DNA from: Octopus vulgaris | Lineage: Eukaryota | Direction of reading: 5' to 3' | Length of the DNA stretch: 64,000 nucleotides | NCBI GenBank assembly: GCA_951406725.2 | Contig: OX597836.1 | Location: 47,864,001 to 47,928,000 of the forward strand | Shown: positions 22,959 through 62,900 of the stretch, piece by piece | How positions within the stretch are numbered: the stretch's first letter is position 1 | How the letters are laid out: each line of letters starts with the position of its first letter | The notes under the pieces: generated by a model | Seen by the model: the letters and a program-made list of their open reading frames with translations, nothing else | What the model was told of the DNA's origin: nothing | The model's database searches: none | Program-made: the position numbers and the translations under genes

Positions 22959-24660
22959 GAGTAATAATGTTCGAAGATCTCAACGCCAAACAAGAGCGCT
23001 GATTGTATCGGAAAGCAATATTAGACGAGGGCGGTCTTCCAAGAAGCTGTCAGCCAACACTGATTACAGTGATATCAATAAAGAGGAATCCATTTTAGGA
23101 ACAAGAACTAGAAATTGCTACAGAAAAAGTACAACAAATAGTGCTTTAAAAAACAGCAGTTCGGTTCTGAGAAAAAGCGAAGAACAAAATATCTTTGAGG
23201 ATAGTGAAGAAGATGATTTCAGTAAGCAGTCGGAAACCTCAGATCAACCTGAGGAAGACACATCTCGCAGTTTGCGTATGCAGCTGCTTCAGGCTAGAAT
23301 GATGGAAGGTTCTGATTTATATACAAAACGTCAGCCGAAGAGCCGAAAATCTAGCAAGGCTTCTCGAGAAAGCTCATCCAGTTTTACTTCTGTTGAAGAA
23401 AAGAAACACAAGAAAAAGTCTAAGAAAGTTACCTACTGTGTGTCAAGTATAAAACTTGAACAAGGTTCAGAATTTGATAATCTGAAATCCGTTCAGCAAA
23501 ACAATGATACACGTTCCTTTCCTGCCACTCCTGCTCTGACTCTAAGACTGTCGAAATTACAACCTGAAAAATGGCTACGAAAGAGTGATTTAATAAACGA
23601 AGGCAAAGACTCTGCTGCTTCTCATGACAACAGCAAGAGCAGCGTAAAATTGAAGCACTTAAAAAAAAATAAAAGTGGTGGCCGAGAATACAGCCCAAGC
23701 AGTCCTTCTACTTCAAATACTTCAGATGATACCATTGAAAATGTCCCAAACATGGAAGTAAATCAGTCAGATTGTAGCAGTGGTAGTGAAGATGATTCCG
23801 TTTCTAATCATGACAATCAAACTAAAGACGACAGAGTCAAAAGTAACTATGTGTCCAAACCAATTGGTCAGAATTCCAAAGAGAAATTGTTTACTGAAAA
23901 AGGGAAAACACCGTTAAAGCTCAGTGTCAGGATTAAAAAAACTGACATGTCTTTAATTACTGAAAAGGGATCAAGGTTTAGCCCTTCTAGTGCTTCTGAT
24001 AAGCAGAAAAAATATGAAAATGTTTCTAGTGGTGAGAGTACAGAAATTGAAGAATACAATGACATAGCCGTTGACCCTGGGGACAGCAGTCCTTTGCACA
24101 AACCGGTTAGTTTAAATGATAATGAAATCACTAAAAAAACTGACAGTGTCAAAAGTTCTTCTCAGAAGAGTCGTCTGAATGTTGAAAAGTCGTCTCGTAA
24201 AGGCGGAGACGACAAGACTTCAAAAGCAAGTGATAATGAAGGTAGTAAATCAGTAGATGGGTATTCTTCTGTTCCTTCAGTGAAAGAGGAAACTGACTTA
24301 ATAGATTCTGATCTTCAGAATTCCTCACAGAAACGAAAACCTGGGAGAACCAAAAGAGTCCCCCAGATTAGTCTCACCCCTTTAGAGCTTTTAGATGATG
24401 CTAATCTTATATGGCCCAAACAATCAGTTGATTCTGAAAGTGCTTCTTCAAAACGCTCCAGAAAGAAGCAGTCAGGATTTAAACATTATGATGCTGCCAC
24501 TCCTCGTCGTAAGCAAAAATCCCCACGCAGAATCATTGTAAATGTTGATCAGAACAGCATGTATGACAATGAGATAGATTCTAACTATGATGTAGGGGAT
24601 GAAGCATTAGAGGATACAGATGGCCATACAGAAGATAAAACTAGCAACAAGAAGTCTGAG
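22959..24660 (+). CDS. GTF3C2: Exon A: 1702-nt exon, Ser/Lys/Asp-rich disordered N-terminal region
   Basis: Core of the 602-aa ORF; acceptor tttttag|G at 22958/9, donor GAG|gtaagt at 24660; first in-frame ATG at 23278. Confidence 0.85.
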
Positions 24661-27600
24661 GTAAGTCACTTTCACTTTTCTTTTCCTTTTCAGCTTTGTT
24701 GTTGTTGATTTTTTTTTTTTTTTTAAAGCCTTTTGTATGGATTTCCTATTGTGGTACACCATTTATTAAAAGTTTATTATGAAGTGGCTCCCCTGCTTTG
24801 CTAAACTTTATTTCAATTAAAATGCTAAATAGTTATATTTCCTACCAGAAATTAGGTATTTTCTTTTCTTTTCTTTTAAATTCAATTCCTTGAAGGAAAG
24901 CATGAAACAAAATATAATTGGCAGAGTGGACATATTTCCTGATTGCCTAATTTCAAAGTTCCAGCTGCTGGCAGAGGAACTGAATACATGACTCTTGTGT
25001 ATTTTGTGGTACCCTAAACAATCCCACTACTACTATTGTCCTAGATTTGATGTGCTCAACTAATAATCAATTACATTTTAAAGCTGATGACTGCGGACAT
25101 GCCCAGAGTTAGTGATAACTTCCTAATAAAACATAAACTGTTCCCGAGCTAAACCAAGCTAAACCAAATCCTCTTCAAGTCCTTGCAGCATTATAATAGT
25201 TGCTAATTGAACTTGGTTGTCCTTTTTTATTTACATTTTTTTCAGAACCTCAAGTGTCCAAGATGTGAAGCTACACTTGTCAGTGCTCCTTCACTCAAAT
25301 ACCATTTAATGAGTATTCACCAAGCTCTGGTAAGCAAAACTCCTGATAGAAATAATTTCATGCTGTCCTTGGTATTGGTTCTTCTAACCCCAACCCATTC
25401 TCAGAATTATATTTTCCAATATTATTTACACAACTTTCATATCTATTCATAATAATAATGATAATGATAATTATAATAATAATAATTTCAATAAGCTTCC
25501 AGTGTTTACAACTAACAAACTTTTTATTTCTTTCAATTGAAAAAAAATGATTTTTCAAAAAACTTTGAAAAAATATTTTTGTGTGTGCCACTTCTTGATA
25601 TCATTGACCTAAAACTTGAGTCATGGATTCAGGACTTGTTACTTGATATTCCATATGGCAGGCAGCTATATGCAGCTCAAACTATAGTGAAACACTAAAC
25701 ATCTTTCTCAGTCCTTTCAAAATTAGTACCACAACCAATGGGCCACAATGTTATCCTTACAGTTTATTTTCTGTATGTTTGTCTTATCCCATTTTAATGA
25801 TTTTTTTTTTTTTTGTTTTTGGAAACAAAAGTTATTTTTCCATGTCAGGAGTTGAATCGATTCATTTTGGAGAGCTATTGATTCCATTTAATTAATGATT
25901 CAATCATTAGAAAAGTGCTGTATACTTGTTTTTTTGTATTTGATTGGTTTGTAAATTGCTTTTGCAATTTATTGAATTATCCCAGTGTGTTTGGGCAGTG
26001 CAGATGTATTATAATATGGTACAGAGGTGAGCATTTCAGAGTGATCTGTAGCATATGAGAATAAGTCATACTTCAGTGTTGCTGTGTGTCACGGAATATT
26101 ATGTAATGGAGTTGGGTTTTTGGCGTTCTCTTTGTGAAGCTGAATAAGTTTAGTTGACCAAATTATTTTGTTATGTCTGTGTGTTTGGTAATGACAACAA
26201 CTGAAACAAGCTAACTGTGCTTGGGCATTGCACGGTAGCTTTGATCTGAAAGTTTTTTAAAGAAGGCTTATCAAACCAGTATTTAATTAAGGTGATACAA
26301 TTGATGTTGCATATTTTCGTAATTATGTGTTGTGTATCCCCTTGGGTTAAGCAGAAGTTCTAGGACTGTTCTGATGCTGGTTAATTCTATGTCATTGTGG
26401 GCAATTAGGCAGGTGACCGATATGTTTCTAGCAGATGGTCACTAAGTTGTAACATGCGTGTTTAGGGGATTTTTACTTACTTTGTTTAGTGTTGGGTTAT
26501 CAGTATTTGTGTATGGCTTGACATGAACCAGACAGTGTTGTTTTAAAGCTTATTATTCGTAACAAAGTGCTGTAGTTCTTGGTGGAAAACCTGACAGTGT
26601 CCGTAAAGCAATGCCATTTTTTGTGTAGAGTGAAGTTTGTTCTTTAACCCTTTTGTTACTGTATTTATTGTGAGATGCTCTTTGTTTCTTTCAATTATTT
26701 TAAATATATCAAAGAATTTAGTAAAATAACTTAGTTATCATTCAGCTAGTTTTAGGAACATAAATTGCGACTAAGGTTTGGTGGAAGATTTTAATTCAAA
26801 ACTTATGGTATCAAGACATTTGTACTAAAGAGCCAGAGGCGGTTTCAGCCGGGTTGGGAACGAAAGGGTTAATATTATATTGTTGGATTTATTTAATGGG
26901 TGCTACTGAAACCAGGGTGTGATTATGTATTGCTGAAGCCGTTAAGCACTTTTATATCTGGTCTGGTAATGGGAACTTGGTAGTGTTATATGTTGTGAAG
27001 ATTGGAGATATTATGTGGTTGAATGGTGTATAAATTTGATGAGTGGGAAATTCATTTGTCCCCATTGTTGTTAGCTATTTTATTGAATGATCAGCAAAGA
27101 GAACAATTGAATATTTCACTGATGTTTGAAACTTATTTTCAGTCACTCAGGGAAGTACGTCTAAGTCTTGCCTCATGGGCAACAGGTTCTAATCTTTCTT
27201 TGCATTCGATCAGTTTGCAGGAAGATGTTCAAAAATCTATTTTAGAGTAACACGAAAAACATGCTACTAATAATGGTAGCATGCCTTTCATTTTTCTAGT
27301 CCAATAGACTAAGTCTCCAAGAGTGGAATCAAGTTTACATTTGTGCTTAACCAAAAGATATGATGGTGGTTACTATTGTAGTTGTTACATTTAAAAGAAA
27401 CATAGTTTACTTTGAACTTTTTTTTTCTTTGTTAGTCTATGAAAGTGGGAAAGTAGCCAAGTCATTTTAGGTCCTCTTATTTTGAGGGAAGTGGGGTAAC
27501 TGGTTGATAATAGTTAAGTGCCAAATACAGGTCGTCGTCAACTTACAACCACAGTTGGTTCAGACTGACTATTCATAAGTTGGCCTATAGGCCTACATAG

Positions 27601-42600: not shown

Positions 42601-45600
42601 AGTTATGGCAGTGCCAAAGTCCTCCTTCTCTGACGACCAACCTGTGATCCCACTACACCTCTTATGCACCCATAGCTTACACTGGATATGTTGTATGAAA
42701 TTCTTACCTCAGAATGGTCACTTCCCAAGACAGTTGTAGAATCATGTCTTCTTGCTACCTAAATCATTGCTATTTTTAAGGTATCAAAATGGTAAGCACA
42801 CTGGGCAAAATGCTTAGCGGTATTTCATTCGTCCTTACATTCTGAGTTCAAATTCTGCCATGGCCAACTTTGATAACTTAAATACTAGTGAAACACTGGG
42901 GTCGATGTAATCGATTGTTCTACAAAATTTTAGGACTTGTGCCTTTAGTAGAAAGGATTATTATTATTTTTTCATGATCGGTTGGATGTGTAATGTCAGT
43001 GTGCACACATGACAGAGTGTAAACGCCCTGAGAGAAAAATGTTGGACATAAGAAGCATTGGATGTGGCATGCAAGAGAGACGTTTGTGTTGGTAAGGTCA
43101 TGTACTACAGATGGATGAGGAGAGCTGTGTGAAGAAGTGCCACTCCCAAACAGTGGAAGGAATCCAGGGTACAGGTAGACCCAGGAAGACATGGGATGAG
43201 GTGGTCAAGCATGTCCTTCAAACAAATAAAGTGAGATCACAGCTGTAACTTACACCAGTGTTGCATAACCAGCCAACTCAAAAAGTACCCTTGGATCGTA
43301 GGGTGACATGCTGTGCTTGAGGAGACTGATTGAGTCAAGTACATCAGCATCAGCAATATCAAAATCAAATCAAATGGAAATTGTAGATGTGGTCCCCATG
43401 CCAGTGGCACGTAAAAAAGCAACATCCAAACATGGTCGATGCCAGCCCCCTCGCCCCGACTGGCTTCTGTGCCAGTGGCATGTAAAAAGCACCATCTGAA
43501 CATGGCTGATGCCAGTACCACCATTACTGGCTCCCGTGCTGGTGGCACATAAAAAGCACCATCCAATTGTGGTCAATATCAGCCCCCCCTGGCCCTGTGC
43601 TGGTGACACGTAAAAAGCACCCACTACACTCTCAGCGTTAGGAAGGGCATCCAGCTGTAGAAGCATTGCCAGATCAGACTGGAGTCTGATGCAGCTTCCT
43701 GGCTTTCCAGACTCCAGTTGAACCGTCCAACCCATGCCAGCATGGAAAACGGACACTAAACGATGAAGATGATGATGATTTTATAGCTAGGTCTCACTTT
43801 GAAGTGTCTCGATTCTAAGCTTTACTTCCCTAACCTTAGAAATTCAGCCCTGAGAACAAGGTCATCATTATACGGCTAGTCCCATGGACAGCTGGTCTTA
43901 AACACTTCTCTAACGGCTACCTCCCCAACATTTTTATACCATTTCGTCTTTCACTCATTTTGGATTAGAATTTAGCCAGAATGAGAGTCAATGTATTCCT
44001 TACCAACTTGCTTCCATTTCTGACCCCCCCCCCGACTCTATAGCCCTGCTTGCAGATGTTCAAAAAGAATATTGACTATTGATCTCACATGTCTTGACAT
44101 TGATTTAAGTCATCATCTCTTGGGGTGGAGGTGGGATGTTGATAAAATGATTCACTGTTTAACACTGGATTCATCATCATCATCATCATTATTATTCTTG
44201 AATCACAGCAAGTTTAACGGCATTTATTGAGTATTTTCTATGATCATGTTTATTTATATTTTGGCTCCAAAAAATGGCTTCTGCTGAATAATTTTTCAGC
44301 CTCGCCTGGCCCCCGTGCCGGTGGCACGTAAAAAGCACCATCCGTCCGTGACCGTTTGCCAGCTCCGTCTGGCACCTGTGCGGGTGGCACGTAAAAAGCA
44401 CCCACTACACTCACGGAGTGGTTGGCATTAGGAAGGGCATCCAGCCGTAGAAACACTGCCAGATCAGACTGGGCCTGATGCAGCCTCTGGCTTCACAGAC
44501 CCCAGTTGAATTGTCCAACCCATGCTAGCATGGAAAGCGGACGCTAAACGATGATGATGGTGGGCATCTTTGGTTAGTAATTGTAGTATTTGTATATTTT
44601 GCATGTGTTGAAATCTTTGAGAGTATCATCAAGCTGGTAACTGATGTACTTGTATATTCCAAACATATTTAAGTCTTTGGGGTTTTCAGAAAGCTAAGAA
44701 TGTTTCATGCAAAGACTATTTACTTTACACATTTTTTTGTTTTCTATTTTAATCTGTAGGCAGCAGGAAATTTTTAAAATCAATTTTTTACTGATTTTTG
44801 TTTTTTTCTTTCTCTGATATAGATGGGATTGTGACTTAGTTATTTTCTGCCATTTGTTTACTTTATTAAAACTTAACTTTAATCATTTTCCTTTTTTTCT
44901 CTGTTTATCCAGAGCAATTGGTTCCCTGCATGTTATGAGTCAAGAGTTATTTAGCACCGATGAAATGGGAGACAGTCGTCCGTTGAAACGAAGTAGACAT
45001 TTTAACCTTCCAGATGATCATGATGCTTCTCTGCTCTGTGATGATAACTTTGGTATGGATGATTTTGATGATAGACGTCGTTGTAAGTTCAGTGACTAAA
45101 ATTTAAACCGTATCGAAAATAAGGACAATAGATTAAAGCCATTACCGTCTTCTTAACTGCTGTCCAAATTTAATTTGTTAGCACTCATTGAACTGAAGAA
45201 GTTTTAGCAGTAAACTCATCTGGTCGACCGTAACGGAAAAGAAATAAGGTCATTACTAAAAGCATTTCAGTTGTTATTTGATGTAACTTTTCTATTATTA
45301 AAGATGTTTGTCTTGTGTCATTTGTAGCCACTACGACTAGTTCTAGCCACGGGGGCTCAACACGTGGTGGCGGAGGTTCTTCGATGTGGCCCAGTAAAGA
45401 TGAAGATCTCTTTGAAGAATGCTTGCAGTACCATACCAAACTTGAGGTTCTTCTTCCAGCATTTGATGAGTTCTTACCAACAAGGGACATGTTTTATCAT
45501 CTTCAATCTCAGTAAGTCTTCCCATTTATTTGTTTACTTATAACTGTAGAGAATTGTTTGTTCAGGATTTATTAAATTTGTTCTTTTACTCCCAATTTTC

Positions 45601-47965
45601 TAAACCAAAAACATGTTTCATTATCATTCTTTCAAATGTTAAGATAGATTAACCCTTTAGTGTTTAAACCGGCTTTGTCTGGCCCAAATATTCTACACAT
45701 TTTATGCTCAAACTGGCCAGATCCAGCATCTCACACCTACCCTGCAATGTCATTCTAAAAATATACAATTACATGTTTGAAATCTTAAAGCTACAAAATA
45801 ATATCAAATAAATGTTTTTAAATGTGAATAAATAAGGGTTACTTTTGACAAATTAATCTGAAACACTAAAGCGTTGAAGAAACAGCATGAGAGCTGATTA
45901 ATTAATTGCAAAAACATTTACATATTTAATCAAATACAAACAACATAACCGTTTAGCAAGTGCTGATTTAGATGATTTAGTTGATAGAACGAAGCCTAAA
46001 ATATTCCAAATTGCAAAACAGTGACCATGTGTTTACAAGATGAACAGCCTTTCTCTAGGAGAGAAATGTATCATCATCATCGTTTAACGTCCGTTCTCCA
46101 TGCTAGCATGGGTTGGACGGTTCGACCAGGGATCTGGGAAGCCAGAAGGCTGCACCAGGCTCCAGTCTTATCTGGCAGTGTTTCTACAGCTGGATGCCCT
46201 TCCTAACGCCAACCACTCTGTGAGTGTAGTGGGTGCTTTTTATGTGCCACCTGCACAGGTGCCAGGCGAGGCTGGCAACGGCCACGGTGGGATTGGTGCA
46301 TTTTACGTGCCACCGGCACGGAAGCCAGTCGAGGCGGTCATACATATTTGCAGAAACTTTAAAATCATTTAAGAATTGTTGCCATTTTGGATAAAATGTT
46401 TAGCAACATTCCTTTTGGCTCTTTACGTTTTGAGTTCAAATGACACCAAGGTCAACTTGGCCTTTCATCATTTGCAGGTCAGTGAGATAAGCACCAGTCA
46501 GTCACAGGGATTGGTGTAATCAATTTGCCCCTCCCCACCAAAATTTCAGGCCTTGTGCCTATAGCAGAAAGTGTTGTTGTTGTTATTAATTGTTTTTTGC
46601 TTTGCATTTCTAAATTCTAGTGAAATTGATACCTGTCTCCCAATCACTCGAAAGAGTATCGACTTTGCTGTAGAGTTGGGCAATAAAGTAGAACCAGCAT
46701 CTTTAGGCTTGTTTGGATCTACAGTCTCTGGTGGTAAGTGTTCCAGGATTCTAGCTTCTTTATATCTAATGATATTTCAATTTTTATAGGTTTTCTTTGT
46801 TTGTTTGTTTTGCAGTTCACTGAGATTAAGAGAACTTGATTTCACCAGATTTATTGAATTATCTCATCTTTTGGGTTTATAGTAATTCCTTTTCTCTTGA
46901 TTTGTGGAATATTGAAACCTACCTGACTGCTTCACTAATTCTTTAACCCTTTAATGAAACTATTTTCGGTAATTACACTATGAAATCATTAGTTTTCAGT
47001 TGGCAGAATCATTAATGCATTGGACAGAATGCTAAGTAGCATTTCTTCTGGCTCTTTATGTTCTGAGTTCAAAATTCCTCTGAGGTCAGCTTTTGCTTTG
47101 CACCCTTTTGCAGTCAATAAAAATTCGAAAATTCCTCAAAATTGGAGAGGAGCTTGAATTGATTCTCAAAATTTGCACCCTTGTCAATAATAACCTGACA
47201 ATGTCTCTTGTATTTTAAATATCTTAAGATGAATTATTATTAATGCAGCTTTAATTTTTGGATTATTAATTAACCAAAACTTTAGAGATGATACATTTGC
47301 CAATGCATAGCCACCTCACTATCTTTTGAATCAAGTTGACCAAGAGCCGTTTATATATGGAACCAAACCGGATTTAAACTAGGAACTATCATTTCTAAAC
47401 TGGGAGGAATAACTTAATTAACTCCTTGGCCTCTAATATTTGTTACAAATTATTTTATTATTCATGTTTTGATTCATTAAAGGGAGCCATATTGAGCTGA
47501 TGTCAGTGTTTGGGTTTATAGAGTAGGTTACCAGCAGACAAATTAATTTTATTGCTTCTGTATTTTTGTAAGTTGAGTTTTCTAACTTCCTCATTGTTTT
47601 CATGTCCGTTTGGCCATGTTCACATGGAACAATTTATTGAGGAAGAAGAATTTCTGTGGCTGTTACACCCTGCCTGTCACCAACCCATACCTGTTTCCAA
47701 GCCAACTAATATTTCCCCTTGGCCAGGCATGTTAATGCAGAATATTGGAAATGAATGACATTCATTTACAAATATTGTGATGCCAAAACATGAAGACACA
47801 CATACTCACACTCATACACTCATACACACATACACACGTACATATGTGTATGTTGCGTGTATCTATATATATATATAAATTAGAAAAAAAACACCTTTTA
47901 TCAATTCAACAATGAATTAGTATTTCTAAATTGAATTTTTCTCTGTAAGTTTGGAATAATATTCC

Positions 47966-48008
<43 letters not shown>

Positions 48009-51000
48009 TCTATTGTGAATGACAAGCTTATTTCAGTTTCTGTTTTCCAAATTTGCTCACAAAGTTTTAGCTAGCCTGTGACTCTAGCAGAAAATACCCG
48101 CCCAAGGTACCAAGCAATGCGACTGAACCTGAAACCATGTGGTTTGGAAGTAAAGACATGTCTGCACCTCCCATGCCATACAAGGATGCAAATTCCATTC
48201 CGTAGCATTCTATGATTTCTTTTTCTTGTATTTCTGCCGTTCTTGACTTGGACGTTTCTTATCTCGTTTCCAATGTTCTGTTTTGATATTAAGGGGTCTT
48301 TATAGTTCTGCTTACATTAACCTTCAATGAAAGCAGTTCTTAGCTCTTGCCACTGTTGGGTGATTTATTTCAGTGTGCAATCTGTGGTATGATGTTACTT
48401 TTGAGCACAACTCAATGAAGTGTGATTTAATCCTTGTACTGTGCTTGGAGCCAGGGATAGGTGTTAGATGTTAGGTTAGCTATCTTTTCCAGAGGATACT
48501 ACTTTTCTGCTGATTCATTTCTGTATTAGCAGACTTCATGGTACATGTTTAAAACTATTTTTTTATCATCTCTAGAGATGAGCTTAATACTACTGCTACA
48601 AATAATAATAATAATAATAATAATATCATCATCCTTATTTCTTCTAAGCCGGCTTATGTATATTTATCTTCAGTAAATTTATACATTATCCTTCATATTG
48701 CTTGACAAAGTAATTTTACAGCTGGATACTATTCCTAGTGATTTTAAATCTTTCTGTAATCCTGGATTGGAAATTTTTCGGCAGGGACAAAACAAGTGAA
48801 GCTATATACTGTGATGTACAATATCAAACAAAGTTTGAATTTATGATGACTTTATGGTTCCCGTTTCTCATAGATTTCTGATGATAGATTGAATTTTTAC
48901 TTGGTTCTGAATTATATGACATTATTCTGAAATGATTTGATAATTAAAATTTTTGTTATTTTATTTTACTTTTTCTTTCTTGTAGATAGTATCAACTTTT
49001 TTACTGGTGGCCCTGTTTGGTGTGCAGTGTGGTGCCCCATTCCTACAACAGAGGGCATTGGTGCCGACCAATATGTTGCTGTGTACTCCCACAAACATAT
49101 GGATGAAACCAATGTGGTGAAGAAAGCTTTCAGCAAGACAACCGTCATTCAGATATGGAATTGTGGACCTCTCAATGCATTTTCTGAGTAATAACTCTTG
49201 CATTTTATTTTCTTGATATTGTTCTCCTTCCACATTAGACTAGATTTAACCACTTTAGCATTTAAAGTGGTCGTATCCAACCCAAATATTCTACTTATTT
49301 TATGCTCAAACTGGCCTCATGTGGCCCCTCACATCTATCCTATAATGTCATTGTGAAAATAAACACATCATCAAAATCTCTAAGCTATGAGAAAATGCCT
49401 GATCAATTCAAAACAATGCTAGCGCGGAAAATGGACGTTAAACGGTGATGATGATGAGAGAAGAATGGCATTACATTTGACTGAGTCACCTGGATGCTAA
49501 AAGGTTGACCATAAAATCCTGATAATTGACATCAACTTCAGATTGACGGCTTAAATTATTAGCTGTTGTGTTTAAGTAAGATGTTATTTTTATATTCATA
49601 CGTTCCAATTTTATGTAAATTAACCGACATTTGAGTTACGTGAAGAGAAATCACAAAACCCAACTGAGGTTGAATCTCCAAAGTCATTGTTTGCATCAAC
49701 TTTACAGATTGTGAAGACCCTCACATTTTTCTTGGTGACTTTTCTTTCTGCAATTGGAGGAATTATTCTGAAAATTAGAATGTATTGACAGTCACATATA
49801 ATGAATATTGCTTATTTCTGTGCAGTCCAAGAGTAAAGAGATGTTATATAAATTAGCTGTGACATTGTGTGGCAGTAAATTGCCTTTTTAAGCATTTGTC
49901 TCTCCCTCTCTCTCTCTTTCCCATGTTTATTGAAGCTTTAACAGTGATGTAACTTTGTGATTGAATTCGGTAGATGGAAGTTACTGCCGTGTGTGTATGT
50001 GTGCGTATAGCTGCTCAGTGCCTCTCCGAAAGAGAGAGAGGTACCATTTATTTGTAATTGTGTCTGTAGTAAATAATAATAATATGGTTTCTCTGTTTCA
50101 GGAAATTGTTTCTACCACATCTTGCATATGGTATTGTCCATGATTTCGGATGTGTATTTAGTATGTCCTGGTGCCCTTTTGGAGCATGGCAGTCGTGTTC
50201 TCAGTCAAGTTTCCAAGTAAGTGAAAATAAAAATAACAAAAAGAAGAAAAAAAATGAATTGCTTTGTCTTATAAAACTTTTCCAAAGCTAGTTTTGTTAG
50301 ATATTTAGTTTACTTTCTGTTTTGTTAGATATTTAGTTTACTTTCTGCAAATTTAGGCATGGCACATAAAAAAGCACCATCCGAATCGTGGCGCCTCGAC
50401 TGGCTTCAGTGCCGGTGGCACGTAAAATGCACCAATCCGACCGTGGCCGTTGCCAGCCTCGCCTGGCACCTGTGCAGGTGGCACGTAAAAAGCACCCACT
50501 ACACTCACGGAGCATCCAGCTGTAGAAACATTGCCAGATAAGACTGGAGCCTGGTGCAGCCTTCTGGCTTCCAGATCCCCGGTCGAACTGTCCAACCCAT
50601 GCTAGCATGGAGAACGGACGCTAAACGATGATGATGATGATAATGAAACATTTAGTTTCCACACCTAACTAATCAAGCTACAACCTATCACTTGAATAAG
50701 GAAAGAAGTGGGGCCAGTATTTTCAGTTAATCCTTTTGATTAGAGTTTAAAGTTTATTAATTTCATTGAAGGTTGACTTTTAATCTTGCGCTATTTTCAG
50801 GAGGGTTCTTTGAGAAGACTTGGTCTACTGGCAGCTGCATGTTCAGATGGAAGTGTCCGTATTTTCAGGTAAGTTGAGTTGCAATGTCGAGTTTTCAACA
50901 TAATTATATTCTGTTGGATATTGCGAGCTATTGTAGAACAGTATTTTGTTTGTAATGCTACAACAATTAATTTGTTGCTCTTTCTAGTGTCCCATATGCA

Positions 51001-53421
51001 TCAGATCTGCTCGACAAGGATCAATTGGTTGGCACGTATCAGTTTTTCCGGGTGAAGCCGTCCATTAGTTTGATACCTTTGCCAGATATGTCAGGTGAGC
51101 CAACATTTATTCTTCAGTCTTTTCAAATGTTCATCTCATCAAACAGATTTTAAATGTTTATCTTTATTGCACTGTCCATCTTACATTTGTAGTTTTCTTT
51201 TAGCATTGCATTGAAAGGTTTTGTTGTGTTTTTTTTCTTTCTAATATAACAGAGATGTTACACACTATTTCAATATTTGACTTATAAACAACTTAGGGAG
51301 AGAATAGAAAGATGAACAAAAGAGAGAAAATGGTCAGAGAGACACATGGATCATATTTATTTAAAAAAAACAATTCATTAAGAAATTATTGTCGTTTGTT
51401 TTACTTTTTGTGGTCATCTCCATATTGAAGTATTCAGGTGAATTTTTTTTCTTAAACATTCATTTTGAATGTCCTTCATGGTACTATGTTCTGTCAGTTG
51501 GAACATATGCTTATATTTACTAGCAGAAACACAGCCCTTTGGGTAGTTTACTGCAAGTCCTTATGATGTGGTCACACACACACACACGTCTGTGTATAAA
51601 GGTGCTGGCATAAACTGTGTATTTGGATTGTTACCATGTGGTTTTGAGTAGCATGGCAGTTTTGAAACATGTCTTCTACTGTAGTCTTTGGTCTGAGCAA
51701 AACCCTGCAAGTGGAATTGGTAGGCAGAAACTATAAAAGTATCAAGTGAATGGATGTACCCAAACATGGAATTAAGGTATACTGATAACGTTGACCAGCT
51801 CAAAGGTTTAAATATAGCTTCTCTCAACCTAACCACACTGACTTCAATAATCTGACAAGAGAAACAAACTTGCTGTGGCCCAGAACAGGACATTGCAGGA
51901 CTTGTATCACAATAAATCTCAAATGGTTTGGACAGTCTTCTAAATTGAAAGGTTGTATCTGTTGGTATGGGTAGAGTTCTGGGTATAATTACCCCCCCCC
52001 CTCCCTTTCTGAAATCAAAACTCTTGATGACATGTGACCTAAGCTCCTTGACCATTTGCCCTGCACCCTTTGCCCTTTAAATTGTGAGCCAGCATCATTT
52101 GGGAATCCTATTTGATGTTATTTTCTCCTCCATAATGTGTATTTCATTTGCAAATTTAACCAGCTTTTTTATTAAATTATTCTTTTGGAGTCTATTTACA
52201 AATTCGTTTGTGTCTTTAAAATGTTTCTTTGTTAATTTCAAAAAAAGGGGAAATTTTTCTGTTGCAGGTAGTTCTGGTAGTTGTTGTTTGTGTGTTGACT
52301 GGCAACATGGTGAGGAGCGACGATACGTGGTGGCTGGCTATGCTGATGGTATGTTTTACAATTCAATATGAACTTTTTTATTTCTTCCGAATATTTTATT
52401 TAAATTTCAAAAAAATTTATTCTGCTTGTCAGAGATTATTTGAAATAAAATACATTTTCTGTTGTTTTTTTGTTTTTCTTGACTCAGGTGCTACCAGAAT
52501 ATGGGACTTAAAAACACAGTCTCCATTATTACGTACTAGTATCAACTTAGATATGACTGATGTATTCTTGTATCCAATCCGATGTTTCAAAAGCCATCTG
52601 AGTGAAGTACGTGCTGTGTGTTGGTCTCAAACGGTACATGACACTTTTGTGACTTGTGGTGCTGATCGTGATGTGAAATTTTGGAGAACATCAGATACAA
52701 GCTTCCCATTTTGTTGTGAAAAGTTCTGTCAGTGCATGAGTGCCCGTTGGGTTCAGCCTTGGAATGGAGTTGTTGTGGCCCAGGATGATGCTTTTTGGTA
52801 TGTTATCTTTATTAAACCTGCTATTTAAAATATTATTCATTATAATTGCATTAGAGTTTTGTTTGTTTTCTTGGTTTCGTGTGTTGGCTGGTTCTGCAGA
52901 CTTTTGTGTTTTATGAAAGTTCGGTACTCTTCCTAAAACCCTAATCTCTCTATTGTGAATTGAGAATGGTAGTTTGTTTTTTTGTTGTTTGTTTTTTTTT
53001 TTCTTCAGAGAAATGTCTGTTGCCAGAGGAAGGATGCAACACACATCGTAACTCCTACACTCTTAAATTATTACTGCTACTCTCTCTCTCTCTCTCTCTG
53101 TTTGATTTTACATGTTGACATAGGTTTACTAGGTTTCTACTACATCAACTGATGTGCCCTTGTAATATTTACAACCCCACAAATGCTCTCTACTAGTTTT
53201 ACTCTTACTCTTTACTCTTTTACTTGTTTCAGTCATTTGACTGCGGCCATGCTGGAGCACCACCTTTAGTCGAGCGAATCGACCCTGGGACTTATTCTTT
53301 GTAAGCCCAGTACTTATTCTATCGGTCTCTTTTGCCGAACCGCTAAGTGACGGGGACATAAACACACCAGCATCGGTTGTCAAGCAATGCTAGGGGGACA
53401 AACACAGACACACAAACATAT

Positions 53422-53454
<33 letters not shown>

Positions 53455-56400
53455 CGACAGGCTTCTTTCAGTTTCCGCCTACCAAATCCACTCACAAGGT
53501 ATTGGTCGGCCCGGGGCTATACCAGAAGACACTTGCCCAAGATGCCACGCAGTGGGACTGAACCTGGAACCATGTGGTTGGTTAGCAAGCTACTTACCAC
53601 ACAGCCACTCCATCCAGCTTCTGAGTTGTTTATTCTCAGTTTTGGCTGTGAAGGTTTTGCTATTTGTTGCTCTTCTCTCTCATCAATCAATATAATGGTA
53701 TTGACAAAATATCTATTATATTGACAGTCAGGTGGCGAGCTGGCAGAAACGTTAGCACGCCGGGCGAAATGCGTAGCCGTATTTCCTCTGCCGTTACGTT
53801 CTGAGTTCAAATTCCGCCGAGGTCGACTTTGCCTTTCATCCTTTCGGGGTCGATAAGTTAAGTTTAGCCCCTTGTGGGTAGTAAAGAAATATATATTGAG
53901 AAATTTACTTTCTACTTTCTTGGGCTTTTAGATGCTTAGGATTCTCATAGAGTATGTCTATATATATATTGGGCAATGTTGCACAAGAGTTGTCCATTTT
54001 CACAAACATCTCTCTTTCCGTATTATTTTTATGAGGTTTATGAATTTTAATTATGGATTTTTCCAAACATTTGACAGTTAAGCATGCCTTAAAAAAAAAA
54101 AACTAAGGTTGCTGCAAATGTGTTTAAATAATTACATGACTCTGGAAATGTGGGCTTTGAAATGACTGTGATGAACAACATCCACCCTACTGTTTTATAT
54201 ATATTTCTGTACAATGACATAGGAACTATAGTCTTTTTATTGAATGAAAATCAGTCTGTATTGCTTTGGGTAGTTTTGGAAACCTGGCATTTCTGGGGGG
54301 ACAGTATACCAGTGGACAGTTAAAGCCCAGTTTTTCCTCGTTTTCATGGCTTTTACTAACAGGATGAAGTTTCCCTTCATTAGGAGGTTAATCTATTGGA
54401 AATAGCATTCTTTGATGTTAGCTTATGTGGATTAAAACAGGTAGAATTAAACTGAAATACACGTAATGTTTTATTACATAAAATACTGTCTTTAGACTTG
54501 CACTCCAAACCCACGAATATATCCACTTGACTAGTTCTCTTCTGCTTGGTTTTCTTGATGTTAATACATAAAAGGCTTGATGATTAGTAGAAAACATACT
54601 CCAAGTAGTTGTTAGAGTTAACAATTTAGTCACAATTTCAATAAAATGATTATCTTTAATATTATGTAACTTTTTATCAATATTCTTGTATCCTGTTTGA
54701 CTTATACTTGGACTACAATTTGAATTGTATAGGGAGAGAGAATATATCTCTTTTTATATTATTTTTTTAAAAAGCTGCAGATACAATGTTGTGAAATTAA
54801 GCTGTTGACAAACTGTGTTTTCCATTTATGGCTGGATGTAACTATTTCATTTCACTAATTTTGCTAATGTCCCTGTGAAAATTTGCAAATTAGTATTTAA
54901 AGAAAGTTCCTTGTAAGATTTTGTTTAATTTCTGGTTGTAAGCATTTCAGTTTACCTTGGACAGAATGCATTTTGGCTTTTATTCATATAACTGCAAGTG
55001 CTGTCAAATCATTCCTTGTTATCTGTTGAAGAAATTATTATAATAAATATTTTGAATCGGATTCAACAAACCCGAATTTTAACAGAAAGGCAAATGTCTT
55101 TCTCGAGGAAATTCTGAAAGCCAACACCTATTTGTGGACTTCATTTGCCAGAAGCTTACCTTTTGCTCTACAATTTTCACCACAATATTCCATGACAAAA
55201 TTAATTATTTTTTTCTTATTGGAATAATTCTTTCTTTATTTTTTAGTTATGATCATTGCTGTGCTTTCTACCAAGACGCTGGCTTATGTTACCCTGACCT
55301 TTATGGACGTCGTTCTGTTATGTGGCATAATGCTTGTATCTGGGTAAGTCATTTCTCTTCATCATTAATACATGGCAATGCTGTGGTGCAGTTTTAGTCA
55401 CGTCAAATGTTGTTAGGTATGTCAATTGTTTGTCAAAACAAATGTGTGTGATACTGAATCAGTTTTATATGTGTAATCTACAGGCTTTCAGCATTTGTAA
55501 TTTTGATGTTGTCTGCTGTTAATGAATACAAGATGGTCATGGGGCCCACATAGCCTCACCCTTGCTTTAACCCTTTCATTCCCATATTTCTGTCAAAATA
55601 CACTGCCTTTCTTTCAATTAATTTTGAAAATAATGAAAAAATTAAAATAACTCTGACATTATTCAGCTGGGTCTTGGAACATAAATTAACATGAAATTTT
55701 AATTTAGATGACTTTAAAATGGGAGTTTTGTTTCATGGGACCAAGGATAGTTTCAGGCGGGTTGGTATCTAAAGGGTTAAATGGAAAAATTGTCTCAAAA
55801 TGCTTTTATATTGATGAATAATGTACATGGTCATTTATTTTACCAACTTTTCTTAATCATTTAGCTGCAATATAGCAAGAATATAGGATATTATGAATAT
55901 AATCTAAAAAAAAAAAATGTAATTTCCAAGAGAAATCATATTTGTATGAATAGTAAATAAACTGTTCACTTTGCAGTCTTTCCATTTTTGAGGTGGGCAT
56001 TTTTCTCACTGTCTCCTCTACTCACATGGAGATTATACTACTCCACACTGCTCCCTTTCAAAATGCTGTCACTTCTCACCAGATCTGACAATCTTTCCTT
56101 AAAGGTGACTTTAAACATCAAATAGAAAAATGTGCTCTGAGGTTTTAGTGGAAGATAATCAGAATAAAGTTGTATAATTAATGCATATCTTGTTCTACTA
56201 ATTGTAATAGAATTGTAAATAACAAGTTACTCAAACATTAATGAAATTTTCTTTTTTAAACATAAAACTATATTTAAGATAGTTCCTTGAATACTCCTTC
56301 TGGAACACCAGTGTACTATACAGCATACTGTTTTAGAACCCCTGATCTGAAGAGATAAACTTTTAATTTGTTGTTGACCAACTAAGAAATGTATAAGGTT

Positions 56401-56887
56401 TATATACTAATGTGGTGGCTGTCGTTTAGTTTTTTTCTTTGTTAGTTGTCAATGGTTTATATAATATTTACTTTGTATTTCACAGGATGTAAGTCATTCA
56501 AGTTGGTTAAATGTGGCTGTAACCTGTGATAGCACTGGTACACTTATGATGTTTAAGTGTATGAATTTATGGAAAGGCAATAAATCGAAGAAGTTAATGT
56601 ACCGCAGACATGTAAGTAACTCCTTTTACTTTGCATTGCAGATAGAATTATTATTATTATTATTATTATAATTAATATTATTGTTAGAAGGTGGGAAGCT
56701 GTTGGAATTGTTTGTAAACCTGACAAAATGCTTGATAGCATTTCACCCGTCTTTACATTTGGAGTTCAGATTCCTCCATGCTTGATTTTGCCCTTCATCC
56801 TTTCAGGGTCAATTTAATACCATACCAGTGTAATTGACTAACTCCCCTGCCCCAAAATTTCAGGCCTTGTGCCTATAATAGAAAGGC

Positions 56888-56924
<37 letters not shown>

Positions 56925-59900
56925 TGATGTGGTGGATTGGTAGAATTGTTGGACTGTCAGAAAAATTCCTTGCAGTTCTAAACTACACACTTGTGTCAAC
57001 TTTGCTTGTCATCCCTCCACTGGCAATAAAATAAAGTACCAATCAAGTACTGAGTTTGATAATTTCAATTGGACTCACCCCTCAAAATTGCCGGCCTTGT
57101 TCCTAAATTAGAAGCTGTGGAAATAAATCACTTTTGAAACCATGTAGTTTTGGGTTCAGTTTCACTGCCCAGCAACATGAGCAAAGGTCTTCTAATGCTC
57201 TAGATGGAAACTGTACTGAAGCCCCATCATGCTTTTGTGTCTGTCTCTCTCTGTGACTTGTCTTTATGTGACACTTTTTGATAACTGGTGTTTGTTTGCA
57301 TCCTTGAAGTTAGATCAGCAAAACAGAAGCCAGTAGTACAACTATTGTACTGGGGTTGATTTGTCTGAGTAAAACATGATGTGAAGGCAGTGCACCAGTA
57401 TGGCCACAGTCCAACAATTGAAACTAGTAAAAGAGAATGACTTTTTTCTTCTCATTTGTTTAAACTCACCCTTCACAGTCAAGTTGAATAAACGATAGCT
57501 TTATTCAACTTTATCTGGAATATTCTTAGATGGTATCTTGAAATGAGCTCTCATTATAATGATCAACAGCTAAACATTTTTCTCATGTGTTTTCTCAACA
57601 TCTCTTTTTGTTCTTTTTAGCTGTTGTTTGAAACAGAAGTAATTCCCTCCATCTTTCGGGATTCAAATAAAGACTCAGATTCATTTAGTTTTATCTTGGA
57701 ACCAAGGACGTATGATGAAGTCTTACCCCGATGTAGTCTGGTTTACAAAGATAAGAAAATGGTGAGTGCTTTCTTTTCTATTCATCTTACATTTTCTTCA
57801 GTCAAGTTTTTGTTTATTCTGTCATCCATTCAGGTTGTGCTGTGATGTAGGAATATAAATCCCGAGATTGTTTGTCCTTTTCTTGGCATCTGAATATTTA
57901 CTTATTCAGTATTTCAGTGATTTGTCAACTAAAGTAATTAATGCAGCCAAGGTGTGTGAAAGGATAATTAAGCTGAGACTAGTTTTAGAAAACTCAACAG
58001 CAACATCCATTTCCACATATTATGTCCTACAGCCAGAAGGACTGTTTCTATGACACCCTTCTGCAGACTACATCAGTGCCAATTGACAGCTGCTTCATTA
58101 TCATGACTGGCTGGCTGGCCGTTTGTCAGCAGCACAATGACTTCCTTGGGATCTATGGAGGCTGTGGATATGAGATATCATCATCATCATCATCATCATT
58201 TAGCATCCGTTTTCCATGCTAGCATGGGTTGGACGGTTCAACTGGGGTCTGTGAAGCCAGAAGGCTGCATCAGGCCCAGTCTGATCTGGCAGTGTTTCTA
58301 CGGCTGGATGCCCTTCCTAACGCCAAATGAGAAAGATATAAATCATCCTGTAACTGCTCTAACAATTTGACAGGAAACCAGTCAACCACCTCATCGCCTA
58401 CCATTCAGGTGGAACACAAGTCAAATAGATTTCATTTTCACAATGAAATCAGATAGACGGGGGACTCGTCATACTCTCTTTTGCTCTTTTACTTATTTCA
58501 GTCATTTGACTGCGGCCATGCTGGAGCACCGCCTTTAGTCGAGCAAATCGATCCCAGGACTTATTCTTTGTAAGCCCAGTACTTATTCTATCGGTCTCTT
58601 TTGCCGAACCGCTAAGTAATGGGGACGTAACACACCAGCATCGGTTGTCAAGCAATGCTGAGGGGACAAACACAGACACACAAACACACACACATATATA
58701 TATATATATACATATATACGACGGGCTTCTTTCAGTTTCCGTCTACCAAATCCACTCACAAGGCTTTGGTCGGCCCGAGGCTATAGTAGAAGACACTTGC
58801 CCAAGGTGCCACGCAGTGGGACTGAACCCAGAACAATGTGGTTGGTAAACAAGCTACTTACCACACAGCCACTCCTGCGTCATCATCATCATTTAATGTC
58901 CACCTTTCCGTGCTTGCATGGATCCAATGGAATTTTATGAGATTTTCTATGGCTGGATCCCTTCCTGTTGCTTGTTTCTAAGCAAAGGAATATTTCCCTC
59001 CACAATCAAACATGTTTTTCACAGAAAACTGGAACTAAACAAATATCAATTGTATGATGTTTGTTTACAGTTATTATGTGATGTCAAAATAGGAACACAC
59101 ACACACATGCACACATTCTCTAAAATATTAAATCTCTACATGTAAAAGTCACACTTAATCTCTTACGTAGAAGAACTCTCTTGAGACACATTTTTAAGGA
59201 TGGCAATAAGGAGGTCATCTGACCATAAAACGGTGCCTCACCTGAGTCCCTGTCCAACTATTGCTTGCAGGGGAAAATGTCAAATAAATGAATATCAGAA
59301 CATGTTAGAACTAAACAACTGCTCAAAAACATCAGAATAACTAAAAATTCTTTTCTTGGCTGGCATCGCATTGTGTGCCAATTCCTTCTTTGTAATCTCA
59401 ATGAACTTAAACAACCAAATGTCAAACAGTCCATCTGACCATTCCCTGATATAGCCTTCTTCCTGGCATTTATAAACAAAAGTGGGTAACAAACGAAATG
59501 AAATCTATGTCTAAACCCTATGGGCCAGAGTTCAGTCTTGGCATCCAGACATGGCTGAAACGTAAAATATCTCTTACATGACTTCTGTCTGACATTCCTA
59601 AATATTCAGCTGGCCACCTGTATAACGTTAATTTATCTATCAACTTTTACCAAAAACAAAATCCTGCAGATGTTAATTAAATCGTTATCCCATCTAGCTC
59701 TGTGGGATATTGTTTTTGGAGAGAGGTGAAAACATTTAGTTTTTAATGTTCTGCTCCAGAACTTTATACATTTTCTGTTTATATCTATTACAGGATGTTA
59801 TTAAGCCTGATGCAAAGTTTGGTTCTGGTAAACATCTTCCGCGAGAAAAAATTGGAGCCTACCCTATTGCAGCCTTATATAAGGTTGGTTTAATTTGAAT

Positions 59901-62900
59901 GTTCAGATAATTTTTGTTGCAATTGTTAATGAGTATACATTGCTCTTATAGAAGAAGTATTTTAGCTTTTTCTCTTTATTTTAATATAGCATTGCTTTCT
60001 TCACTTTTGAGTACTTCCATATCTCTTAATCTTATATCTATGCTATGAATTCCAGTCAAATATCCCACGTGCATTGTAGGATATTGCCCTGTTGTGAAAG
60101 AAATGCTGCAACTGTCAAATTTTCTCAAGTCTCTTATAAAATCTCTTTGGTTTCTGAATGTTTTTTCACAGTGTGTACACACACACATTTATATCGGATG
60201 GAAGACAGACATTGAACGATGATGATGGTGATATATATTATCGCAATGACAATTATATTTCGTCATCATTTAACTCACACTTTTCCATGCTTGCATGGGC
60301 CAGATGGGGGGTTTGTTGAAGCAGATTTTCTAAGGCTGGATGCCCTTTTTGTCACCTACGCTCTCATCTCTTTCCAAGCAAGGTAATATTTCATCATTGG
60401 CGGGCATTTCTTTCATAGAAGACTGAACATGAACAGCATCACTTATGGGGCAGTGATGCTTGTTTAAACCATGCAATGTCAAAACAAGGACACGGATGGG
60501 GACACACACATGATGGATTTCTTTCGGTTTCTGTGTTAAATCTCTCAGGCTTTTGTTAACCCAGAGCTTAAAGTAAGAGATACTTGCCCAAAATATTGTG
60601 CTACAGGACTGAACCTGAGACCACAAGATTGGGAAGCAGGCTTCTTAACCACACAACCATGTCTATCTATTTCTCTAGTTACACACACACGCGTGTGTGT
60701 GTGTGTGTGAATGTAAAAGCAAATCATGGTGGCCATTTTTCCCTTCTGGCATGCATTGGATGTCTTGAGACAATATTTCACAACCAGATGCCCTTCTTCA
60801 TATTGACCCTTGTTTTCAAAAGTAAGGCATTTTATTACATGGTTTCGTGTGTGAAAGCACCAAGCTGTAGTGACATTATTATTCATGTGGGACATAAACA
60901 TCATCACAGTTGCAAAGTTATGTCATTGGGAAGATGCAATGAGTCTAACACACACACACACACACACATTCATAAGCATAAAAGAAAGAGTTCAAATTCA
61001 TTTCCAACCGCATGGCATGAAGGGCAAGTGTCTCTCCCCCTATAGCCTTCTGCTAGTCAATGGTTTGTTGTTGAATTGGTTGGTACAAACTATAAGAAGC
61101 TCGTGTGTGTGTGTTCCTATTTCTGTTTTGACAGCATTTAGCAGCTGTATGTATCAGTGTTAACACAAAAGCAATGTCATTGCTTACATCTGCTACAAAA
61201 ATCTGTCTGGCTGTCAAATGGTTTGTCTTTCAAAGGGCCGAGGGAGAATAGTTGGTGGCAGGAAGAGCATCTAACTGTAGAAAAACTACCTCAATGAGTC
61301 TCACCTAAGCAGAGAAAAAGTGGACCTTTAAATGTTGGAGGTGGTCATGGTTTTATATATTCATTGGACTCTGTACAGATTCTGCCAACCAGTTTTCACT
61401 GACAAGGCATTGGTCAGCAGCTGTGTGGTTAAGAAGTTCAGTTCCCAACTATGTTGTTTTGAGTTCATTCCCATTGCATTGTACCTTGGGGTAAATGTTT
61501 TCTAACATCTTGTGAAGGAATTCAGTAGATGGAAATATTAAAAAAAACAAAAAAATGTGTGTGTATTTGTGTGTCTGTGTGAATGATTACAAATTTGCAA
61601 TGAGCTGGGTTACAAGTGGTAGCATCAGTTTTTCGTTTTGGCTGCAAACAGTGATATTTGCTAACATTTCCTGTCAACAAATCATCTGTGAGTTCTATGC
61701 TTCCAAACTCCTGGATTTAAAATGTCTTTACTTGTAAAACAAGTAAGGGTTGGTAACAGAAAAAACCTCTAGTCAAGTGGTGGTCTGTTGTTGGACAGGT
61801 CCTGTGCATATGAACCTTCCCCAGCACTCTCTGTACAACCTGGAAGGGCCCATACTCTCTCCTGTCCCTGTTAAATAGATTAATGGAGCTTTAGCCACCA
61901 TGACTAGACCTGGGATAAATACTGGAATGGTTTCCCATTACTTTCTCCAGGCAGGTAAAATTTGAACTCAGAATTGGCATTTCTGCCAATTCGCCAACAA
62001 TTCTGTGACTCTGCCACCCACAGAACCACATGAAATAAAGTGTTTTGCTCAAGACCACAATGCACCACTCAGTCCAGGAATGAAACTGACAATCTAGGGA
62101 CCGTGAGTGGGACACCCTAACCACTTGGTCATGCACGTTCACAGAAAGAGCATTCAGCCATAAAAACCCTGCCACAAGTAACCCCCCCCCCTCGTCTAAA
62201 CACTTCCTGGCATAGAAAAATAATCCTTTCCACTGGAAGCACAAGGCCTGACATTTTTGGGGTGGGGGGGGGGGGGCAGTCAGATCAACCCCAGTATGCA
62301 ACTGGTACTTAATTTATCGACCCCCAAAAGGATGAAAGGCAAAGTTGACCTTGAGGGAAAATTGAACTCTGAATGTTGCAGCAGACGAAATACTGCCAAG
62401 CATTTTACCTGGTGTGCTAATGATTGTGCCAGTTCACCGCCTTCCTGGCATAGAAAAAAAGAATCATGTTAAATGAGAACTTGTGTGATTAGATTCTGAG
62501 AATTAGTGCAATTTCCATTTACCAGATTTAACTCACCTGGCATTAGTGAAACGTTAGCGCGCCGGGCGAAATGCTTAGCAGTATTTCATCTGTCGTTACG
62601 TTCTGAGTTCAAATTCCGCCGAGGTCGACTTTGCCTTTCATCCTTTCGGGGGTCGATAAATAAAGTACCAGTTTCACACTGGGGTCGATGTAATCGACTT
62701 AATCCGTTTGTCTGTCCTTGTTTGTCCTCTCTGTGTTTAGCCCCTTGTGGGTAGTAAAGAAATAGGTATTTTGTCTGTCATTACATTCTGTGTTCAAATT
62801 CCGCCGAGGTCGACTTTGCCTTTCATCCTTTCGGGGTCGATAAATTAAGTACCAGTTACGCACTGGGGTCGATGTAATCGACTTAATATCTTTGTCTGTC

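Follow-up and report, generated by a model that had tools for sequence, protein, structure and literature searches.

Does a core subunit of the Pol III factor TFIIIC carry its own docking site for the NuRD complex? The question is raised by a ten-residue peptide, RRKQKSPRRI, encoded in the 64-kb stretch of Octopus vulgaris DNA analysed here (the window). The original prediction had placed this peptide about 45 residues ahead of the first zinc finger of a TFIIIC subunit, and translation together with exon joining confirms both its position and that distance (Table 1). It is a real, well-conserved and cephalopod-restricted candidate motif of a known class in an unexpected host and, judging from sequence, we hold it somewhat more probable than otherwise that RRKQKSPRRI is a functional internal NuRD-interaction (RBBP4/7-docking) motif, gained by coleoids in the probably disordered arm of GTF3C2/TFIIIC110.

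Table 1. Features of the GTF3C2 locus around the candidate motif (positions in the window)
Feature	Position	Strand	Remarks
Large constitutive exon, probably disordered GTF3C2/TFIIIC110 N-terminus	22959..24660	+	1.7 kb; 607-codon stop-free frame around the motif
Degenerate AT-hook	24328..24360	+	Cuttlefish has the intact GRP core, Octopus and Argonauta have GRT
Upstream basic patch SKRSRKK	24448..24468	+	With the motif, forms a bipartite-NLS pattern
14-residue block ATPRRKQKSPRRII	24496..24537	+	Identical in Octopus, Argonauta and cuttlefish; includes a TP-x-R/K and an SP-x-R site, both full CDK consensus
RRKQKSPRRI, candidate internal NuRD-interaction motif	24505..24534	+	RRKQxxP, basic residue at +2 after P, hydrophobic residue; from translation
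C2H2 finger 1 cassette exon, included or skipped	25246..25329	+	AG/GT ends; aligned to finger 4 of ZNF512B
Two exons: ZNF512-type C2HC + C2H2 finger pair and start of RxAA helix	38617..42117	+	
GTF3C2 WD40 region exons (tauB scaffold)	45327..63164	+	Approximate tblastn limits

The host gene is GTF3C2 (TFIIIC110), which spans most of the window, in agreement with the TFIIIC identity proposed originally. Over the WD40 region, the Argonauta orthologue aligns with human GTF3C2 (PDB 8CLI, 8cli_C) at an E value of 5.5e-72 across 537 residues, and its RxAA helix, which is present also in human GTF3C2 and ZNF512B, gives a weak local alignment with the human protein. To these shared parts the cephalopod protein adds two to three zinc fingers and the motif, neither of which belongs to human GTF3C2. 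The translated product of the window resembles O. vulgaris GTF3C2-like records, and the window exons match the records P0002 and P0023. The GT..AG joint into the large exon is present in all four sequencing runs compared, as contigs whose RNA origin is presumed from the spliced joints; the run search returned no run carrying the sequence that was recorded as RNA. The finger 1 exon is an in-frame cassette of 84 nt, skipped in run X10 and included in X1, X2 and X15, and it is absent from some O. vulgaris records and present in others. Because the cassette covers the finger 1 exon and the motif lies in the preceding constitutive exon, the motif is retained in both splice forms. Once the cassette is joined, exactly 45 residues separate the motif from the first Cys of finger 1, and the same spacing is found in the O. 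sinensis, O. bimaculoides and O. vulgaris records. The motif lies at about residue 517 of 1349 (P0023), away from the extreme N-terminus, in an arm that is disordered by composition, order-promoting residues making up 0.20 of its sequence, compared with 0.40 in the WD40 part. Records of 619–644 residues that end past the large exon were considered as isoforms and rejected, such records reading into the intron. High-copy repeats with very high contig depth occupy the introns at 26700–26870, 29380–29760 and 33100–33550.

The resemblance of the peptide to known RBBP4-binding motifs is closer than had been claimed. ZNF512B carries RRKQKTPKKF at residues 421–430, so that the variant given in the original prediction was right, and six of its ten positions are identical in octopus, the other four being conservative. 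In the ZNF512B study (PMC11602157), alanine scanning found R422, K423, P427 and K429 essential, Q424 and F430 partly needed and R421 dispensable; K429R kept binding, and K419 and H420, which lie outside the consensus, touch RBBP4 in the crystal. The octopus peptide satisfies every essential position, having the equivalents of R422, K423 and P427 and an R for K429, and it has Q at position 3 and I at the position of F430. It lacks equivalents of K419 and H420, with T and P there instead; some ZNF512B records, possibly isoform models, likewise lack these two residues. Like the internal motif of ZNF512B (consensus RK(x)xxPxK/R; PDB 8TX8), the cephalopod motif reads RRKQK-[T/S]-P-basic-basic-hydrophobic and lies internally, where a low-complexity segment precedes ZNF512-type finger pairs. 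The host differs, however, being a WD40 subunit of TFIIIC, and so does the spacing, 45 residues before the equivalent of finger 4 as against about 78 before finger 3 in ZNF512B. With the N-terminal motifs of FOG1, SALL1/4, BCL11A, ZNF827 and Drosophila Ush it shares the full RRKQxxP consensus, but it lies some 517 residues from the N-terminus, and those hosts are sequence-specific regulators, whereas GTF3C2 is a general Pol III factor.

Could such a match arise by chance? RRKQxxP appeared in shuffled octopus N-termini with a frequency of 4.4e-4 (global shuffle) or 7.2e-4 (30-residue local shuffle; 200,000 shuffles each), and it should thus be rare in any one protein, yet a few chance occurrences are likely per proteome. 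Matches to the loose consensus RK(x)xxPx[KR] carry no information here: it occurs in 36 of 162 family members, mostly at AT-hooks, and in 5% of shuffles. A human survey gives NuRD-interaction records for 19 of 23 RRKQxxP proteins, a set enriched at N-termini, and for only 21% of those with the loose internal consensus (bioRxiv 2025.06.23.660971). Furthermore, the mechanism of peptide docking to NuRD operates in a protostome, as described for Drosophila Ush (PMC7891773).

Conservation in cephalopod and other lophotrochozoan orthologues, to which the original prediction had looked, holds for the former but not the latter. The ten residues are identical in 25 of 25 cephalopod sequences, which form three clusters and are therefore not 25 independent points. 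The sample comprises O. vulgaris, O. sinensis, O. bimaculoides, Argonauta, Sepia pharaonis and cluster members, including 15 of the 20 members of the cuttlefish cluster, and is without Nautilus or other named squid. Outside the cephalopods, RRKQxxP is absent from all ten lophotrochozoan orthologues, namely nine molluscs (Mercenaria, Sinanodonta, Mactra, Mya, Patella, Babylonia, Pomacea, Biomphalaria and Bulinus) and the annelid Owenia; Sinanodonta has RKQxxP overlapping an AT-hook and lacking the later basic residue, and Owenia a form without Q. In the profile search set of 162 GTF3C2-family proteins, RRKQxxP occurs in three, which are the three cephalopod members, and in its strict form in 0/159 of the others, 125 of which possess 300 residues or more ahead of the WD40 region. 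It was not found in the amphioxus, hemichordate, echinoderm or anemone proteins or in lamprey ZNF512, nor in any of the 15 vertebrate-clade GTF3C2 proteins scanned, one of which has RKQxxP without the later basic residue. Upstream of the fingers, a relaxed form of the motif occurs in four non-cephalopods against 1.84 expected (scan of 106 proteins, three of them cephalopod). Zinc-finger GTF3C2 proteins of other invertebrates (amphioxus, Ptychodera, echinoderms, Actinia, annelid, molluscs and arthropods) share the arm–fingers–RxAA–WD40 layout, but carry AT-hooks and no RRKQxxP. Since the non-cephalopod orthologues examined do without the motif, it is not needed for TFIIIC110 function.

Looser forms were seen in two further places. 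Half of one insect-like clade (5/10; P0124, P0134, P0144, P0152 and P0181) shares an N-terminal FRRKKxxP, which fits the looser RRKxxxP, and Styela (P0014) and its sister P0170 have RKxx[ST]P-basic-basic-V close to the N-terminus, a looser version of the internal motif.

Within the arm, the motif is embedded in a 14-residue block that is the longest invariant run in the three-way alignment, in which 27% of the arm as a whole is invariant. The pairwise comparison of Octopus and cuttlefish (34% identity) contains invariant runs of 15, 12 and 9 residues elsewhere in the arm; the arm has several conserved islands, and the block is not uniquely conserved. Other islands in which octopus and cuttlefish agree completely or almost completely lie at 23266–23301, 23722–23757, 24022–24066 and 24535–24591, one of them helix-like and three acidic.

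The main rival reading is that the block is a phosphorylation-controlled bipartite NLS, consisting of KK, a spacer of 10 or 11 residues and a basic cluster, together with TP/SP CDK sites, in which RRKQxxP would be incidental and no NuRD would be recruited. This alternative, which the original prediction had itself named, has gained support. Scored against the classical bipartite consensus (two basic residues, a spacer of 10–12, three basic residues in five), the pattern is present at the block in 4/4 cephalopod sequences (O. vulgaris, O. bimaculoides, Argonauta and cuttlefish) and is the only one common to all, and the two CDK sites of the block are the only conserved ones among three full sites in the Octopus N-terminus. 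The spacing between the two basic patches is fixed, orthologues often carry a basic patch in the same area, and an NLS with CDK sites would by itself be enough to explain the basic residues and the proline. In ZNF512B, the predicted NLS falls in the C-terminal part of the internal region (PMC13458389). What an NLS with CDK sites leaves unexplained, however, is the invariant Q, the exact R-K-Q-x-x-P-x-R register and the lack of K/R swaps. Indeed, outside the motif 36 of 98 K/R positions are identical between Octopus and cuttlefish and 14 are swapped, whereas inside it there are zero swaps, and an NLS alone would presumably require neither Q nor a fixed choice of R or K. Moreover, nuclear import could rely on monopartite basic patches in other parts of the arm, and import and NuRD docking are not mutually exclusive. 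We consider the pure NLS/CDK reading rather unlikely; were it correct, the finding would be an ordinary one.

Another possibility is that the block contacts DNA or chromatin, as an SPKK-like minor-groove binder or a remodelled AT-hook that replaces the AT-hooks of the orthologues. SPKK peptides are a class of minor-groove binder. The AT-hooks common in orthologues (form RKRGRPRK) lie in the same segment and share the register R-K-x-x-x-P-x-K/R with the motif, and the single AT-hook of Octopus and Argonauta has lost its GRP core. The motif itself has no GRP core, however, and the cuttlefish retains an intact AT-hook alongside it, and we regard a role in DNA contact as very improbable.

How, then, is the locus related to ZNF512B? 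The motif had been taken as independent support for a ZNF512B-like ancestry; the fingers are indeed of ZNF512/512B type, but the motif, conserved among the orthologues examined in cephalopods only, lends this ancestry no support. That the fingers are homologous to those of ZNF512B, a proven carrier of such a motif, does speak for the docking reading. The octopus fingers and RxAA helix are collinear with fingers 4–6 and the RxAA helix of ZNF512B, as a C2H2 finger followed by a C2HC–C2H2 pair. A ZNF512/512B profile, scored without a control set of unrelated C2H2 proteins, gave 45 bits for Octopus (E 3.7e-10 at Z=1e6) and, in the same search, 231 bits for amphioxus, 244 for Ptychodera and 122 for Actinia. 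The Pfam families ZNF512_C2HC and ZNF512_zf-C2H2 gave no match at E≤1 in the three cephalopod proteins; ZNF512_C2HC reached its gathering score in 4 of 19 invertebrate orthologues (two amphioxus proteins, Ptychodera and one other), all fused to the GTF3C2 WD40 region, and in none of 12 further orthologues, two of which had weak matches. Amphioxus GTF3C2 matches the structures 2CTD and 2GQJ of ZNF512 and ZNF512B (KIAA1196). An Atlas search with the octopus finger region placed a ZNF512 cluster at rank 11 (score 0.91), which we treat as a lead only, and listed nothing for the motif region.

ZNF512-type finger pairs and an RxAA helix precede the WD40 region in invertebrate GTF3C2 (25246–42117 in the window; P0078, P0083, P0092, P0113, P0117 and P0075). 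The vertebrate proteins seem to divide an ancestral zinc-finger GTF3C2 between them, ZNF512/512B corresponding to its front half and the finger-less GTF3C2 to the other half. A milkfish gene model in which ZNF512 runs into GTF3C2, with an RxAA helix in each half, fits a tandem duplicate that split, although it may be merely a fused gene model.

In a search that covered ZNF512/ZNF512B-like proteins of at least 835 residues, RKQxxP was found in 76 of 77 ZNF512B-like proteins, with lamprey as the miss, and in 0/42 fish ZNF512-like proteins, both counts being among the matches listed (120 of 126). A 35-row finger tree groups the cephalopods with the molluscs (98/96), cephalopod GTF3C2 falls with other molluscs in both trees, and a clade of cephalopods and ZNF512B is rejected on the finger tree (p-AU 0.000124), where the motif needs two changes. 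With two changes, two gains are simpler than one origin followed by many losses, and from the tree and alignments parallel gain in cephalopods and ZNF512B appears likelier than common inheritance; the ZNF512B motif would then have arisen in the equivalent disordered segment of the split-off homologue. The register shared with the AT-hooks of orthologues suggests a possible route by which the motif could arise twice. The cephalopod protein was also considered as an orthologue of ZNF512B, which is ruled out by the same p-AU value and by its two to three fingers and WD40 region, ZNF512B having eight fingers and no WD40 and forming a separate lineage on the tree.

The opposite history, in which the zinc-finger GTF3C2/ZNF512 family had the motif ancestrally, coleoids and ZNF512B retained it and other lineages lost it or let it decay, seems improbable to us. 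It would explain why both motifs directly precede the finger array, in one and the same disordered segment, and why looser forms occur in Owenia, Styela, a Styela relative and one arthropod-clade protein. Of 58 [ST]P-basic-basic sites, 4 have RK two residues before them where 1.0 would be expected, for a pattern picked post hoc, and we read a stretch at the same position in lamprey ZNF512 as a possible relic; the quick turnover of short motifs keeps such a history alive at low odds. Against it stand the absence of the strict form beyond cephalopods in the family, the small excess of the relaxed one and the rejected clade. Furthermore, the flanks of the cephalopod and ZNF512B motifs have nothing in common, and a single origin would cost about eight or more losses by our count on the accepted animal tree.

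If the peptide is the RBBP4/7-docking motif that we favour, its contacts would be expected to follow those in the ZNF512B–RBBP4 crystal structure: acidic pockets atop the RBBP4/7 propeller would take up the second R and the K, Q and P would sit in an uncharged groove, and the R two residues after P would meet a second acidic patch. Work on human TFIIIC110 describes it as the tauB scaffold through its WD40 domain, with a DNA contact beside the B-box (PMC11811891), and from human tauB and orthology the WD40 domain would keep the cephalopod subunit on B-box DNA with TFIIIC90/220. Through its arm, the subunit could then act as a NuRD tether at tRNA genes, SINEs of tRNA origin and extra-TFIIIC sites, where NuRD might damp Pol III output or set the chromatin. 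The flanking CDK sites might, more speculatively, turn binding off, and the same residues may also serve in an NLS. NuRD is present on active Pol III genes in human cells, the contact that recruits it being stated as open (bioRxiv 2025.12.12.694012). Another paper, PMC514540, deals with TFIIIC220 and was set aside as not relevant. Cephalopod TFIIIC may recruit NuRD to B-box sites; binding of the bare peptide to RBBP4/7 in vitro would seem likelier than its use in vivo.

Cephalopod genomes are rich in tRNA-derived repeats. A wider proposal, which we offer tentatively as possible though short of probable, is that coleoids hard-wired NuRD recruitment into TFIIIC, that one disordered segment of this family acquired the motif on two occasions, once in coleoid GTF3C2 and once in vertebrate ZNF512B, the latter following the separation of ZNF512/512B from an ancestral zinc-finger GTF3C2, that cephalopod TFIIIC brings NuRD throughout the genome to tRNA genes and the B-boxes of SINEs, and that ZNF512/512B is a detached part of TFIIIC. 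If true, NuRD would have a concrete route to Pol III genes through an RBBP4-docking motif within a core TFIIIC subunit, and a ten-residue motif gained in parallel in two distant branches of a family would clearly exemplify motif convergence. ZNF512/512B have been described as vertebrate-specific (PMC13458389); their correspondence to the front part of invertebrate GTF3C2 would call for a revision of this description and tie repeat-directed heterochromatin factors to TFIIIC. A search of the published literature, with most subscription journals outside it, found nothing on the motif or on a link between GTF3C2 and ZNF512.

The finger arrays of the family vary in arrangement and number. In the Actinia protein, an N-terminal finger pair is set apart by a long arm, as in ZNF512B, and in a clade that includes a butterfly record the fingers before the GTF3C2 WD40 region have expanded to 11–28 copies (P0018, P0086, P0110–P0112, P0115, P0137, P0143, P0155, P0163 and P0172).
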